Positions 18,391 to 26,712 of a DNA stretch of 64,000 bases are shown in pieces (position 1 is the stretch's first letter; every line of letters starts with the position of its first letter). The position numbers and the translations under genes were made by a program. The stretch comes from Escherichia coli (GTDB lineage Bacteria > Pseudomonadota > Gammaproteobacteria > Enterobacterales > Enterobacteriaceae): the NCBI RefSeq assembly GCF_030013595.1, contig NZ_CP122768.1. One strand, 5' to 3'. The notes under the pieces are model-generated. The model was not told the DNA's origin. It searched no databases and was given only the letters and a program-made list of their open reading frames with translations.

Positions 18391-18825
18391 ATGTCTGGCC
18401 CTGCTGTCTCTTAATTGGTTGTGTAATTAATTGAAATTAAACAGGTAAATGCAATTTATTTTTTATCGATATGCCTTTTTGTATGCCTATTGGGAAAAAC
18501 ACGCTTTCTTCAACAGGGAATAAAAGCCGCTTTTATGGTGTTTTGAAACGGGTTTTAAAATGGCGCTCGTGGTGCTCTCGGGCACTCAATGGCGCTCTGT
18601 GATGTGGCTGGTGGTATGTGGCCGCCATGCATAATGGGGCTGATTTTGTTCATGGCCCGGCAGCGGGTGAGCATTTTTTACCATATTCAGGGTAAAAATG
18701 GGCGAAAAAGTTCATTTCTGGCATGGCCTGAAATGCCACGCAGCCCGCGCCGCGTGTGCTCTTGCCGGGGAAAACGGCGCGGAATAATGACCGCCACCCC
18801 ACCTTATGGCGGGCAGTCCCACGAA

Positions 18826-18905
18826 ATCCCGGTTATTTCCGTTTATTCCCGGATTAATCCCGCCTTCTCCCGCATTCTCCCGGCTGTTCCCGGAATTAAT
18901 CGCCG
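18826..18905. repeat. Iteron-like array of ~7 units (TCCCGG/TCCCGC, 10-11 bp period)
   Basis: aaatcccggttatttccgtttattcccggattaatcccgccttctcccgcattctcccggctgttcccggaattaat. Confidence 0.4.
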
Positions 18906-18916
18906 TGGGGTGGTGG

Positions 18917-19207
18917 TTATCTGGTGTGGTCGTAGTTCTGCCGTAGTCGTTCACCCTCAGCGCAATGACGCGGTTTTTTAACGCCGCTGGTAACGCAACG
19001 CGGGCAGGTCATGACGTGGCTGATATACGCATCACGGGCAGCCAGCCACGTCGCTGACGGGGCGCACATATCCGCCAGCGCCTGGCCGTTGCTGGTGGTG
19101 TTGTCTTCCGGCCATGTTTCGGGCTGGTGCGCTTCCGGTAAATCCGGTGCAGGTAATGCCCGGATAAACTCACACAATGCATCCGGCAGGCTGAATAACT
19201 TATGCAT
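18917..19207 (-). pseudogene. Probable remnant of a rep/helicase-like gene (96-aa ORF)
   Basis: Shares a ~40-nt segment (acatatccgccagcgYctggccgttgctg) and peptide motif SNGQ(A/T)LADM with the intact helicase gene at 20446-20490; no RBS. Confidence 0.3.
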
Positions 19208-19629
19208 AAATCTGATGTTCTGAATCGCTGAAAACGTGCGTTTTATGGCGTTTTTTCGTGATTTCTGCGTGTTCTGATGTGCTCATTTCGCTGTATCCCT
19301 TGTGTGGCGCGGGCTGCGCGTGTGTTTCGGTGTTCTTTTTTACCGCCAGAAAACGGTAATCAGGCATATAAACACGGCTGTAAGCCGCGCCGCGTCTGGC
19401 TTCGCGTGATTTTGTGCGTCAAAAAGTGCATTTTTGCCCTTAAAAAGCGTTATTCGTAATTCACTGGTAAATGCTCCGCAGGCCGCGCCATTGCTGGCCT
19501 TTTCGCTATTCTGTGTGGTTTTGCTGTTTAACCCGTTTTGCACACTAAAATTGCCTTGCATCCCGCGCCACGTAAGGGATTGCCGGGTTTTTATGTTGCG
19601 TTTTTTGCCGTGCGTAATATTGTGCAAGT

Positions 19630-19875
19630 TGGTGGGACTGGTGGGAACTGTGGGAACCGCCTAGAACCACGCGGCTTTCAGTGGTTCCCACCAGTTCCCA
19701 CGTTGGCTTTTTGTGGGAACCGTGGCGGTTATTTTTTGTTCTTTGCGGTTCCCACCAGTTCCCGCAGAGTTCCCACTCAAAAACGAACAATAATCATACT
19801 GATGGTTTTATTATTTACTGATTTATATATGTTTTATTTTTACGGTTCCCACAGTTCCCACCAGTCCCACCACTT
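19630..19875. repeat. Putative origin of replication: at least 11 GTTCCCAC/GTGGGAAC octamer iterons in both orientations flanking an AT-rich stretch
   Basis: Octamers at 19631, 19640, 19649, 19683, 19693, 19712, 19747, 19757, 19768, 19844, 19853; AT-rich tract 19776-19840; immediately downstream of the helicase gene. Confidence 0.6.
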
Positions 19876-19906
19876 TTTCAGTTTTTAAAAACGCAATTTT
19901 TGTGAA

Positions 19907-23775: not shown

Positions 23776-23981
23776 GCCTTTTGCTCATTAAACGGGTTCC
23801 TACGCCCGGCTGGTGGATTTACACCAGCGGGGGAAATATAACGCCCACCAGCGATGGCAGGCAAGCAATATTTGCGGTTGCCGCCCATCCCGTGGGGCGT
23901 GTGGTGGTTGTTTTGGGCGTGAGAACGCCCCGGCCCTGTTACGGGCCTTTCTGGCATTTTCATAATGATTATCGCGGTTGG

Positions 23982-24236
23982 TTAGTGGCTGGTGGGTTCT
24001 TTGTTTTTTTGCGCTCTGGCGATAATTTCTGCCATTACGTTATTGCGTTCCTCCACGCGGGCCGCAAGCCATGCATTAACTTCGGATTCAAACCATCCAA
24101 CGCGGCGCAGCCCGCGACGAAAGCCGGGGATAAATTCGCCAGCCCGAATCATGTCGTCAATGCTGGTAGTGGAACGAAGGCGCAGACGCGCAGCAACCTC
24201 GCGTTTGGTGAGGATTTTATCTTGTGTGGTGTCCAT
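23982..24236 (-). CDS. alpA: AlpA-like (MerR/excisionase-type HTH) regulator, about 84 aa from MDTTQDKIL start
   Basis: Motif LTKREVAARLRLRSTTSIDDMIRAGEFIPGFRRGLRRVGWFESEVNAWLAARV typical of the AlpA/Xis family; longest ORF extends to 24296. Confidence 0.7.
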   Translation of the reverse strand: MDTTQDKILTKREVAARLRLRSTTSIDDMIRAGEFIPGFRRGLRRVGWFESEVNAWLAARVEERNNVMAEIIARAQKNKEPTSH

Positions 24237-24369
24237 GATATTTCGCCTCTTAATTGTATTAATTGGCCCTAACTGGCCATAACAATATGGAAGCACAAGA
24301 AGGCGTGAAATTGCCGGACATGTCCATCAGATGGCTGACATGTCCGGCGTATACTCATTCGTGAATTGA

Positions 24370-25248
24370 CTAATCAACCTTAAACCAGCGTCGCATGGTT
24401 TTTTGTGAGGGCAGAGATAAACCAGCTTTGCAAAAATCGTTTTCTAATTCTGTTGGCTGGCCCTTGGTTTTGTCTTCTCTTACATGAAGCCATGGTTTGC
24501 CTCGCTTCGTTTCATCCTTGTAATACAGATAAAGCAAATCATCCACAAAAGCAGGCAGTGCGCTTCTTGGGTCTGGTTGTGTCGTCGGTGATGGTAGTTT
24601 TTTGGTTATGCACCCCATTAACATCCCGTTAGCGCAATCTCTCCCGCCATCCTTAAGGATTTCGATTTCTTCGGCGGTAATAAACAGGTCATCAATGCTT
24701 ACATCGAGTGGACTGGAATCAAAAGTAATCATCGGGCTGAGGGAATAATCGTCACCGTCAGTGTTCATTGTCCTTGGCTTTCCAAGAGAAAAACGAGCCG
24801 ATGACTTTCCATATTTTACAAAATCATAAAAAGGCATGGATTTGGTCAGGTTGCATATGGACATTAACCCTTCTATGGTCAAGTACCTGTATCCCATTAA
24901 AGGTATTTGGTTTTTCGGAATACCTCTGGGACGTTCTTCACTGATAAACAGAATTGCTGTTGTGACTTCAAAATCTCCCGCGCTATATGGTGTATAGACG
25001 GTAAATGGTAGCTGACACAGTGAATCGCCAAGCGGTTTAAATAAAACATACTTATCAGTTGATTTAGTTTCATAATGGTTAAACAGGTCAATTTCAGCCC
25101 GCCACCTTCCTGATATATGTGTACAAATCTCCAGCATTCCTATGTCAGCAAAATGAAGCAAATCATCAACACTGCACTTATTGGAGTTTGCAGTCAGATA
25201 ACTGGCCGCATCGCGTAGTGAGTAAAACAATCTTTTAGGTAATGCCAT
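24370..25248 (-). CDS. Low-GC cargo protein of unknown function (292 aa from first ATG), translationally coupled to int
   Basis: ATG at 25248 lies 2 nt after the int stop (TAATATG) with a GGTG RBS inside the int 3' end; ~40% GC against 52-58% in flanking island genes; possible N-terminal HTH-like segment RLFYSLRDAASYL. Confidence 0.55.
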   Translation of the reverse strand: MALPKRLFYSLRDAASYLTANSNKCSVDDLLHFADIGMLEICTHISGRWRAEIDLFNHYETKSTDKYVLFKPLGDSLCQLPFTVYTPYSAGDFEVTTAILFISEERPRGIPKNQIPLMGYRYLTIEGLMSICNLTKSMPFYDFVKYGKSSARFSLGKPRTMNTDGDDYSLSPMITFDSSPLDVSIDDLFITAEEIEILKDGGRDCANGMLMGCITKKLPSPTTQPDPRSALPAFVDDLLYLYYKDETKRGKPWLHVREDKTKGQPTELENDFCKAGLSLPSQKTMRRWFKVD

Positions 25249-25249
25249 A

Positions 25250-26524
25250 TTATTCACCAACCACTTTTAAGCCACGAAAACCGCCAGTTGCACTAAGGCT
25301 TCCGGTTGCTGCCTGTTCGATAAAATCACCCCACCACGCCATCAGTGGGCGGCGTTGCTCCAGATATGTGGAGCGATTGTAAGCCCGTCTCACCGTGTCC
25401 TTATCCAGATGGGAAAGCGCAGCCTCTATTACATCTGGCGGGAACCCCTGTTCATTAAGCGCCGTACTTGCTACAGAGCGTAAACCATGCGCCACCAGCT
25501 TTCCGGTATACCCCATGCGCCTGATAGCGGCGTTTGCGGTCTGTTGATGCATCCCACGCATGGGGTCGCTGTTATGTGGAAAAACAAACTTTCGATGCCC
25601 GCTGATTGGGCGCATGGCTTCAAGAATGGCCATTGCCTGATTATTCAGGGGGACAATGTGCTCCCTTCGTTGTTTTAGTCGCCCGGCTGATATACGCCAC
25701 ACTCTGGCATCTGCATCTATCTCGCTCCACTGTGCCCCGGCTGCCTCGCATGGGCGGCAAATAGTTAATAATTGCCATTCAATAACAAGACGCGTTTGAA
25801 GTTCTGCGCGAGCCGTTGCCAGTTTTTGCATAAATTCCGGCAACTCATCAGGCCTGATTGTTGGCATGTGTTTAACTACAGGTGGGTTGAATGCCTTGCT
25901 GATTTGAGCGGCGGGATTAGCTGGAATTAATCCAATATTCACTGCGTAATACATAACCTCATTGATTCTTTGTGCCAGCCGTCGCACCGTATCCGCTTTG
26001 CCCTGTGCTGATACAGGTTTCAGGGCTTCGATAAAATCCCGTGCAACCAGTTCTGTGATTGGGCGATGGCCTATGGGTGGCAGCACATGACGCTCAAGAG
26101 AACGCCATATATCACGGAGTGTATTTGCCGCCAGATTCTGGCCGCGCTTTACTTCAAACCATTCTTCGGCCACGCGCTGAAATGTGTTTAATCGCCGTAT
26201 TTCATCATCCCGGCGTTGTTTTTCCCTGTGTTCTTTGGGGTCAGTTCCATTTGCGACCAGTGAGCGATACTCGTCTTTAATCCTGCGAGCATCGGCAATG
26301 CTGATTTCGGGATATGCACCAAGGCTTAACATTGCCCGTTTTTTGGTGTGTGGCTTGTAGTACCGGAACCGCCATAAGGCTGATGCGCTACCCGCTTTCA
26401 CAACTAACTCCAGCCCATCGCCATCCGTGATAAATAAATCCTTCTCGGCGGTGAGCGATTTCTTCTGCAAACTTTTAATCGTCGCTGGTGTAAGTAATTT
26501 TGTGTTTTTGGCCACTGGTTGCAT
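25250..26524 (-). CDS. int: Tyrosine recombinase/integrase, P4 family (424 aa)
   Basis: C-terminal catalytic motifs HGLRSVAST and RRAYNRSTY; N-terminus at 26524 adjacent to the tRNA 3' end. Confidence 0.9.
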   Translation of the reverse strand: MQPVAKNTKLLTPATIKSLQKKSLTAEKDLFITDGDGLELVVKAGSASALWRFRYYKPHTKKRAMLSLGAYPEISIADARRIKDEYRSLVANGTDPKEHREKQRRDDEIRRLNTFQRVAEEWFEVKRGQNLAANTLRDIWRSLERHVLPPIGHRPITELVARDFIEALKPVSAQGKADTVRRLAQRINEVMYYAVNIGLIPANPAAQISKAFNPPVVKHMPTIRPDELPEFMQKLATARAELQTRLVIEWQLLTICRPCEAAGAQWSEIDADARVWRISAGRLKQRREHIVPLNNQAMAILEAMRPISGHRKFVFPHNSDPMRGMHQQTANAAIRRMGYTGKLVAHGLRSVASTALNEQGFPPDVIEAALSHLDKDTVRRAYNRSTYLEQRRPLMAWWGDFIEQAATGSLSATGGFRGLKVVGE

Positions 26525-26712
26525 CCCGAAACAGGTTTAAGGCATACGAGATTGCTTCTGTTTGTGAGGATATGCCTTGATGTATGCCTAAAGAATCTGG
26601 CTTATACCTTAGCAAACTGGCCAAAACTGGACAATAAAAAACCCGCAAGCCTTGTGTGGCGCGGGTTTCGTCTGATTAACTGGCCGTATCTGATACTAAC
26701 CGAATGTCAATT

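Follow-up and report, generated by a model that had tools for sequence, protein, structure and literature searches.

The phage-inducible chromosomal islands (PICIs) of Gram-negative bacteria are laid out in four zones, which serve integration, Bro/immunity RNA, replication and late functions (PMC10111431). Here, we describe an 8.3-kb island that lies beside the tRNA gene ileX of Escherichia coli (assembly GCF_030013595.1, contig NZ_CP122768.1) and that was analysed within a stretch of 64,000 nucleotides, referred to as the window. Judged from its sequence and from comparison with relatives, the island is a minimal PICI-like element built on the Gram-negative plan without the late zone. Moreover, we consider it probable that it represents an intact and recently mobile integrative replicon of this type, from which only the late, packaging zone is missing.

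Described satellites and the layout of the island

EcCIMP1, which was experimentally mobilised by its helper phage Kapi1, shares with the island the tRNA, a P4-type integrase, an AlpA helix-turn-helix (HTH) protein, an ash/C4 plus isrK region, an icd-like gene, small open reading frames (ORFs) and a Toprim plus DUF927 module, all on the same strand; it likewise has no recognisable terS or capsid-redirection gene and was classed as Type C by its authors (PMC11773190). The two elements are distant, with 33% identity between the integrases and 29% between the helicases, and EcCIMP1 is about 20 kb long, uses an attachment (att) site at the tRNA-Thr gene beside proA and carries a fused primase-helicase, an AntA/Bro zone, P22-like ejection and late genes and PerC. 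EcCICFT073 and EcCIEDL933 (PMC6092414) resemble the island in the co-directional int and alpA genes, the origin placed after the replication module, the absence of structural and lysis genes and the use of AlpA as helper-induced activator, but they possess cos and rpp/capsid-type late genes and measure 10-15 kb, and the Pri-Rep protein of EcCICFT073 is of the D5/P4-alpha type. The PICMIs (phage-inducible chromosomal minimalist islands) of Vibrionaceae (PMC10803314) are alike by content, being small, with genes for an integrase, for AlpA and for a primase but none for capsid remodelling and presumably being packaged as concatemers. What sets PICMIs apart is a Fis gene and their dependence on virulent vibriophages; among the island ORFs no Fis-like match was found, and the host is E. 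coli.

Compared with this plan, the island carries a site-specific tyrosine integrase gene at one end together with an att site, an alpA-type regulator gene downstream of and co-directional with int, and primase/replicase genes followed by an origin of their own. The Bro/immunity-RNA zone is represented by C4, isrK, a1b1 and the icd-like gene, with no gene for a Bro/Ant protein, and phage structural or lysis genes are absent. All island genes are encoded on the minus strand (Table 1). A first-pass annotation of this DNA had pointed out that they run in the same direction as int, which holds; its contrast with a divergent layout in E. coli PICIs does not, since the divergent arrangement is that of Gram-positive PICIs (PMC6092414). 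In itself a further small PICI-like island of E. coli of the porcine enterotoxigenic type, the island offers a clean minimal example with one integrase module, one RNA switch, one replication module and nothing beyond these, and yet with population-genetic evidence of recent transfer.

Integration into ileX

The gene order in the window is aer, nfeR (yqjI), nfeF (yqjH, 17578-18342), island, ileX, mug and rpoD. In K-12, the nfeF stop codon and the 3' end of ileX are 53 bp apart, and the 8.3-kb insertion occupies this gap. The empty nfeF-ileX junction is uninterrupted in 4955 of 5426 complete E. coli genomes; the full block occurs in 14 of them, mostly porcine enterotoxigenic E. coli (ETEC), and the primase-helicase module in 31. 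The insertion between yqjH and ileX/mug had been placed at 18406-26712 before, with the caveat that such a block might prove contiguous with its neighbours in all E. coli including K-12; this is not so, and the coordinates agree to within one base with those from the junction comparison, which assigns 18407-26712 to island-specific DNA.

The same comparison defines the empty site and the att core. To the right, the island borders directly on the 3' end of the tRNA, TGGTGGCCCCTGCTG (26713-26727); to the left, it meets a degenerate copy of this end, and these two copies of the ileX 3' end frame the island as imperfect direct repeats. In L009 (loci used for comparison are cited by such handles), which derives from a buffalo isolate and holds an island about 2% diverged, the left repeat reads TGGTGGCCCTGCTG, which indicates that the att repeat comprises the last ~15 nt of the tRNA and that one TGG was lost in the window lineage. 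This TGG-less copy is common to strains with differing flanks. ileX itself is labelled Met(CAT) by ARAGORN, but it is the gene for tRNA-Ile(CAU) with the same sequence as in K-12, in agreement with the earlier view of an integrase adjoining an intact tRNA.

That this integrase belongs to the P4 family, as proposed before, is confirmed by the NF007246 match and by its Pfam domains (Table 1). Both att arms contain arm-type integrase sites, which were absent from the first-pass list: five of the 12 TATGCCT copies of the 64-kb window fall in the two arms, and in relatives the AGGCATA arm sites recur even where the integrase is merely 63% identical. The P arm contains direct repeats of GGCCAGTT (26614-26634, 26677-26685), others stand just upstream of alpA (24260-24283), and the island supplies a terminator for ileX at about 26635-26668. 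By sequence and comparison, it was a P4-type integrase that inserted the island, and the target was the final ~15 nt of ileX.

Indirect evidence for recent transfer between chromosomal backgrounds

The window and strain ETEC1716 differ at 95 positions in 2.5 kb of left flank, the last of them at 18393, at a single position in the 8.3 kb of the island and at 11 positions in the next 1.2 kb of right flank. Hence, the flanks differ by 1-4%, and the core genome further right is 97-98% identical. The identity block ends no more than 3 nt from the left att junction. L009 has the left-flank alleles of ETEC1716 and largely shares its right-flank differences from the window, with an island that is diverged as given above. 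Together, these patterns show that the island allele is uncoupled from the chromosomal background with a break at the att junction. Furthermore, the replication block (18494/18523-23966) recurs between dinD and yicC, where it is 96-99% identical and follows another integrase, and the segment specific to the ileX form (alpA, X, int, P arm, core and P' arm) is contiguous only in the circular form. L003 is an equally minimal relative with the same gene set at another att site, and all nine annotated island genes are full length when compared with diverged homologues. By this comparative evidence, the island is intact and has been horizontally mobile in the recent past.

These observations have to be weighed against the possibility that the island is a defective PICI remnant, which lost its late zone, became immobile and spread vertically or by homologous recombination of its flanks. 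The missing late zone would fit such a history, as would the distal att core without a TGG, the rarity of the island (14 of 5426 genomes) and the extra distal genes (a fragment of a single-stranded DNA-binding protein gene, PerC, Mor and tRNAs) that its close relatives at dinD/yicC hold and that are missing here. Nevertheless, all nine annotated genes are full length, and the end of the identity block within 3 nt of the left att junction, with flank single nucleotide polymorphisms up to 18393, is hard to obtain via homologous recombination. The equally minimal L003 resides at another site, and continuing selection is shown by the compensatory changes in the C4 circuit and in the iterons, described below. 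We therefore regard a remnant as unlikely. The first-pass annotation had left it at a minimal or a decayed satellite; with intact ORFs, the gene set of L003 and a near-identical island across flanks diverged by 1-4%, a minimal but functional element is favoured.

Several copies and relatives of the island differ by further insertions or genes. ETEC1716 carries an IS4 element between mug and rpoD (L001 11662-12999) that the window does not have. The island copy of ETEC4090 contains an insertion with aph(3')-Ia, showing that the island can acquire resistance cargo, and the copies of ETEC1732 and ETEC1734 contain ISEc12. The dinD/yicC relatives encode the Rfam int-alpA RNA (RF02996) just downstream of int (L004 16304-16369; L005 17016-17081), as well as two tandem C4 copies, tRNA genes and the distal regulators PerC and Mor, none of which is present in the window island. 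L008 (GCA_042345815.1, 6182-6544), a relative with 60-75% identity, lies beside the transfer-messenger RNA gene ssrA and has two C4 copies and a match to the small RNA isrL.

An antisense RNA switch with heteroimmune alleles

In satellite P4 and in the immI regions of P1/P7, a C4/CI antisense RNA is processed from the transcript that it controls, its targets lie upstream and at the ribosome-binding site (RBS) of icd/kil, and its loops set the specificity. The island has the corresponding arrangement, with C4 loops that match targets upstream and at the icd RBS. Loop b' of C4, CCTTTTGC, pairs with b1 upstream and b2 downstream, both GCAAAAGG, and loop a' (TTCCTAC) pairs with the GTAGGAA elements a1 and a2. 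The leader, assigned from Rfam scores (isrK, 60.7 bits; c4-a1b1, 38.6 bits), a promoter and terminator scan and covariation, spans 23749-23841 in its isrK/a1b1 part. Neither the C4/isrK cassette nor the icd-like gene figured in the first-pass annotation, and what the NCBI annotation pipeline PGAP lists here as an "ash family" pseudogene is the RNA cassette. C4 and isrK are also found in EcCIMP1 and other relatives, and RNAs of the C4/isrK type have already been noted in Gram-negative PICIs (PMC10111431).

The circuit was compared across five islands whose C4 regions otherwise exceed 92% identity. The window, L003 and L005 have GTAGGAA as a element and GCAAAAGG as b element, L004 combines GTGGAAA with GCAAAAGG, and L009 combines GTGGAAA with GTCAAAGG. 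In all cells (100%) across these five elements, C4 pairs with a1/b1 and with a2/b2 without a mismatch; four of the 15 pairs show a change in both partners and none in just one, and no slid register comes close. Every change in the loops is mirrored in both targets, which shows the C4 circuit to be under selection. By this pattern there are three immunity alleles, and the compensated changes constitute the signature of P1/P7-type heteroimmunity. The comparison shows that the immunity RNAs of satellites give rise to heteroimmune alleles within a set of near-identical islands.

b2 covers the RBS of icd, the first of five overlapping cistrons, so that a block of icd translation should silence the replication operon, as inferred from P1 immI and P4 CI. 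What lies downstream of icd differs between the systems: in P1 it is ant, in P4 epsilon/alpha, and in the island, which has no sid, delta or psu, it is the primase and the DUF927 helicase.

A replication module of the SaPI-Rep/Cch type

The operon runs from the icd-like gene through orf98, orf104 and primase to helicase, with successive overlaps of 8, 8, 8 and 20 nt. The primase is a polypeptide of its own, for which a search of the PDB gave no match. The split between primase and helicase is kept in L007, L008, L017 and L020, and this conservation in distant relatives argues against a frameshift. In the PDB, the helicase matches 5dgk, the Cch protein of staphylococcal cassette chromosome mec (SCCmec; 1e-17), and 8tch, a protein of a staphylococcal pathogenicity island (1e-12). 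Together with the Cch-type C-terminal HTH, these matches point to an initiator/helicase like the Rep protein of Staphylococcus aureus pathogenicity islands (SaPIs), with an AAA+ fold resembling the minichromosome maintenance (MCM) helicase, and not to superfamily 3 (SF3). Of the split primase and SF3-like helicase proposed before, the former therefore stands and the latter has to be replaced. orf98 and orf104 were also considered as paralogues, which their comparison did not support.

The iteron origin just downstream of the helicase gene was recognised correctly at first pass. It begins 35 bases past the helicase stop codon, nine of the ten GTTCCCAC copies of the 64-kb window fall at 19641-19861, and one iteron pair forms a perfect 30-nt inverted repeat. 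Relatives keep the position and the arrangement of the origin, each with an iteron of its own, i.e., the iteron co-varies with the helicase: GTGGGAAC in L010 (helicase 86% identical), GTGGGGACA in L008 (73%), GGTTACCG in L007 (59%) and CCGGGAACA in L011 and L012 (59-60%). The island thus combines an MCM-like DUF927 helicase, a specificity domain and cognate iterons 3' of the gene, as do SaPI Rep and SCCmec Cch, with their homologous helicase, the same type of C-terminal HTH, iteron sets around an AT-rich region and iterons co-varying with the helicase. Different from these systems, it resides in a Gram-negative host, encodes a separate Toprim primase and uses AlpA and an antisense RNA instead of Stl. 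A 43-nt direct repeat with 88% identity links the interior of the helicase gene (20441-20483) to orf96 (19061-19103); it encodes the peptide NGQ(A/T)LADM and may be a recombination scar.

The replicase also bears on whether the island is a P4-family satellite that lacks the sid-delta-psu operon. A P4-type integrase, an AlpA/Vis-like HTH protein, a CI/C4-type RNA that precedes the replication genes and the "ash family" label given to this RNA are all reminiscent of P4. Yet besides int and alpA none of the characteristic P4 genes is represented, as no homologue of psu, delta, sid or epsilon is present, the replicase is composed of Toprim_3 and DUF927 instead of the P4 alpha protein (D5/SF3), and a P2-type cos is missing. 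We hence judge membership in the P4 family to be very improbable.

AlpA and the fast-evolving gene X

The AlpA-like regulator, predicted before, is supported by phrog_66, with marginal Pfam scores, and occupies the same position as alpA in EcCIMP1. In EcCICFT073 (PMC6092414) and EcCIMP1 (PMC11773190), alpA is needed for excision and induction. The GGCCAG repeats just upstream of the gene occur in one variant that is common to relatives whose AlpA proteins are 88-90% identical; as the repeat variant tracks AlpA similarity, this fits a role of AlpA as autoregulator and excisionase.

Between int and alpA lies X, which starts one base past the integrase stop codon and has a G+C content of 40-44% compared with 55-62% in the replication genes. 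X gave no match in Pfam, NCBIfam, PHROG or PADLOC, nor in a profile search of the PDB, and a single-sequence AlphaFold2 model was useless (predicted local distance difference test, 30); the sole recognisable fold is a DNA-binding winged HTH (wHTH). Homologues of X fall into three 90% clusters in a set of 5.8e9 proteins, and a set of 1.8e9 holds 34 representatives. Directly after X comes the gene for the AlpA-like HTH protein in each of the eight further X-bearing loci that were studied in detail, and in six of the eight X is directly preceded by a P4-type int. This position is constant despite differing replication modules, which are Toprim_3+DUF927 or Zn_Ribbon_Prim/D5_N/Pox_D5. L017, an X-bearing locus from a separate genome assembly, likewise adjoins mug/rpoD.

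The spacer between X and alpA, 133 bp in the window, opens with paired palindromes of 10-12 bp, 20-21 bp apart, in seven of nine X-bearing elements. They are of four sequence types: GGACATGTCC in the window, L007, L017 and L018, GCAATATTGC in L016, GTAATATTAC in L008 and GGAATATTCC in L014. The pair was not found in L003 and EcCIMP1, relatives that have no X. Since the arms are each self-complementary, which a plain hairpin would not need, they look like operators for a dimeric protein. AlpA is unlikely to be the protein in question, because different palindromes adjoin AlpA proteins that share 88-90% identity and have nearly the same recognition helices. X evolves much faster, with 29-40% identity between elements compared with 57-63% for Int and 70-90% for the AlpA-like HTH protein. 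The operator type does not follow overall X identity, which is 29-40% in all pairs, so that the link between X and operator is based on co-occurrence and on the exclusion of AlpA, not on covariation. A reverse search of IMG/VR with the operator pair returned 87 matches, which is about chance level, and none of them beside an X homologue; wider sampling of X by sub-alignment yielded four viral and two genome loci, too few for a statistical test of covariation between operator and protein.

As a working hypothesis, X is probably the protein bound at the tandem palindromes upstream of alpA and determines the threshold of alpA induction. More tentatively, the X family might be the long-sought element-encoded alpA repressor of a Gram-negative PICI-like clade, a functional analogue of SaPI Stl, which is a possibility that we would not favour as yet. 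If this is true, X would keep alpA off at these operators and would form the entry point for induction by a protein of the helper phage. In any case, X and the palindromes are candidates for the step upstream of alpA induction in Gram-negative PICIs.

Alternatively, X could be an anti-phage effector in an int-proximal slot and the island chiefly a carrier of defence or other cargo. The low G+C content of X, its divergence relative to Int and the HTH protein and the occupation of this slot by similar-sized, non-homologous ORFs in L004 and L005 could be read in this manner (neither BLASTP nor hhalign identified these ORFs as homologues of X). On the other hand, PADLOC returned no match, the only recognisable fold of X is that of a DNA-binding protein, and its strict position directly upstream of alpA in very different islands, beside tandem palindromes, suggests regulation. 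We assign a defence island only a slight probability. Anti-phage cargo, which was thought to be frequent in such elements, is not recognisable here: PADLOC reported no defence system for ten ORFs, and the island carries no virulence, resistance or known defence cargo.

The absent late zone and the route of transfer

Several observations weigh against an intact PICI-type replicon. A late or packaging zone was not found: profile searches gave no terS, rpp, capsid or other late gene among the island ORFs, there is no match to lambda, P2 or P22 cos/pac in the island, and the distal 1.5 kb has no DNA match to any of 50,697 phage records. By the SatelliteFinder models, three of five PICI core components are present (int, alpA and primase-replicase), at least four being needed for Type A or B, which would make the island Type C, a class that was called ambiguous and of which more than 6000 elements were set aside (PMC10085698). 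Its 8.3 kb are below the typical size of a PICI, relatives are nearly absent from IMG/VR (three loci, none a stand-alone packaged genome), the AlpA assignment leans on weak Pfam scores (HTH_17 and Phage_AlpA are marginal), and the distal att copy is short of one TGG compared with L009, by which excision might be impaired. More generally, no island ORF matched capsid, terminase, lysis or defence profiles, in line with the first-pass statement that capsid, terminase and packaging-redirection genes are not visible. An 11/12 match to lambda cosN at 22557 inside the primase gene was judged to be due to chance, as its flanks are unlike lambda cos.

Alternatively, the island could be an autonomous integrative replicon that is no satellite, excises and replicates in response to its own cues and is moved by generalised transduction, vesicles or transformation instead of hijacking a specific helper. 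No helper-interaction or packaging gene is identifiable, SCCmec, no satellite itself, likewise has a DUF927/Cch helicase, and Type C clusters of int, alpA and primase were flagged as possibly other mobile elements (PMC10085698). Still, gene order and immunity-RNA cassette match the helper-mobilised EcCIMP1 and the P4-type CI RNA (PMC10111431), and domain and profile searches of the island revealed no relaxase or oriT-type gene either. An autonomous replicon thus seems improbable to us, to about the same degree as a remnant.

For a satellite of the PICI type, a mechanism can be proposed by analogy with P1/P7 immI, P4 CI and EcCICFT073/EcCIMP1. In the resting state, C4 would block icd translation, and translational coupling and polarity would silence the whole replication operon; the same block would provide immunity against satellites of the same type. 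A helper phage would switch alpA on, and AlpA would activate the operon and, together with Int, act as excisionase at the GGCCAGTT repeats of the P arm. The excised circle would replicate from the iterons, and the resulting concatemers might be packaged by the helper machinery without any redirection encoded by the element. The island gives concrete form to the question by which means Type C int-alpA-primase elements might be packaged when they encode no redirection gene.

Distal end of the island and further features of the window

Downstream of the origin, the island encodes orf96 and possibly orf95 and orf55. Like orf98 and orf104, orf96 has no match in Pfam, PHROG or NCBIfam. The TCCC(G) array that follows, about 400 bp from the left junction, hardly varies among close relatives and is missing from distant ones; a landing pad for proteins and a signal for packaging are both conceivable roles.

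Table 1. Features of the ileX island and its att sites, with positions in the window.
Feature	Position	Strand	Evidence and remarks
Distal att core copy, TGGCCCTGCTG	18396-18406		degenerate ileX 3' end without one TGG and one C; junction comparison with K-12 and L009
P' arm	18468-18489		two direct TATGCCT arm-type integrase sites (18470, 18482); repeat search
TCCC(G) array	18817-18892		seven helically phased motifs, 10-11 bp apart; downstream of orf96
orf96	18917-19207	minus	small conserved protein, CxxC...HC motif; PGAP-annotated in identical copies; homologues downstream of helicase in L007, L011, L012
Replication origin	19630-19872		GTTCCCAC/GTGGGAAC iterons in inverted sets; AT-rich spacer ~19790-19840
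DUF927 replicative helicase/initiator	19907-21745	minus	Pfam DUF927 1e-82, HTH_56 3e-3; Cch-type C-terminal HTH
Toprim primase	21726-22769	minus	phrog_2249 4e-50; annotated toprim domain protein; 20-nt overlap with helicase start
orf104	22762-23076	minus	8-nt overlaps on both sides; homologues in L007, L008, L010
orf98	23069-23365	minus	8-nt overlaps on both sides; homologue in L008
icd-like gene	23358-23555	minus	NF033153 phage_ICD_like 7e-20; first cistron of replication operon
C4 targets a2 and b2	23564-23605	minus	a2 GTAGGAA, 23599-23605; b2 GCAAAAGG, 23567-23574, overlapping icd Shine-Dalgarno AAGGAGG
C4/CI-type antisense immunity RNA	23613-23700	minus	Rfam RF01695 79.6 bits (gathering score 45); b' loop 23649-23659, a' 23635-23642
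Leader	23749-23864	minus	promoter-like site 23835-23864; a1 23797-23803; b1 23777-23784; isrK-type terminator 23749-23770
AlpA-like wHTH, 84 aa	23982-24236	minus	phrog_66 2e-12; HTH_17 1e-3; Phage_AlpA 2.4e-3; candidate activator and excisionase
GGCCAG(TT) direct repeats	24260-24283		10 bp apart; TRF; candidate AlpA sites just upstream of alpA
Two GGACATGTC(C) palindromes	24313-24348		20 bp apart; between X and alpA; candidate operators
X, 292 aa	24370-25248	minus	uncharacterised multi-domain protein; N-terminal MerR/Xis-like wHTH
P4/CP4-57-type tyrosine integrase	25250-26524	minus	NF007246 1e-156; Pfam Arm-DNA-bind_3, Phage_int_M, Phage_integrase
P arm	26540-26712		TATGCCT at 26540 (inverted), 26571 and 26583 (direct); GGCCAGTT repeats; ileX terminator
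ileX, tRNA-Ile(CAU)	26713-26788	minus	intact, K-12-identical; last 15 nt form the proximal att core

Outside the island, the window differs from ETEC1716 at two further places. Between ygiD and ygiC, a 3.7-kb block (53727-57426) that is absent from ETEC1716 encodes DsbI (53773-54444), a DsbA-like protein (54459-55127) and a 598-aa ORF without NCBIfam match (55145-56941); we take this block to resemble the assT-dsbL-dsbI arylsulfate sulfotransferase locus. At ~50203-50276, the window is short of about 5.3 kb compared with ETEC1716, comprising most of the yqiG/H/I-ygiL fimbrial operon. Finally, a Sib antitoxin RNA beside an ibs toxin locus (47013-47162) and an FMN riboswitch ahead of ribB (50628-50776) are ordinary features of the core genome.

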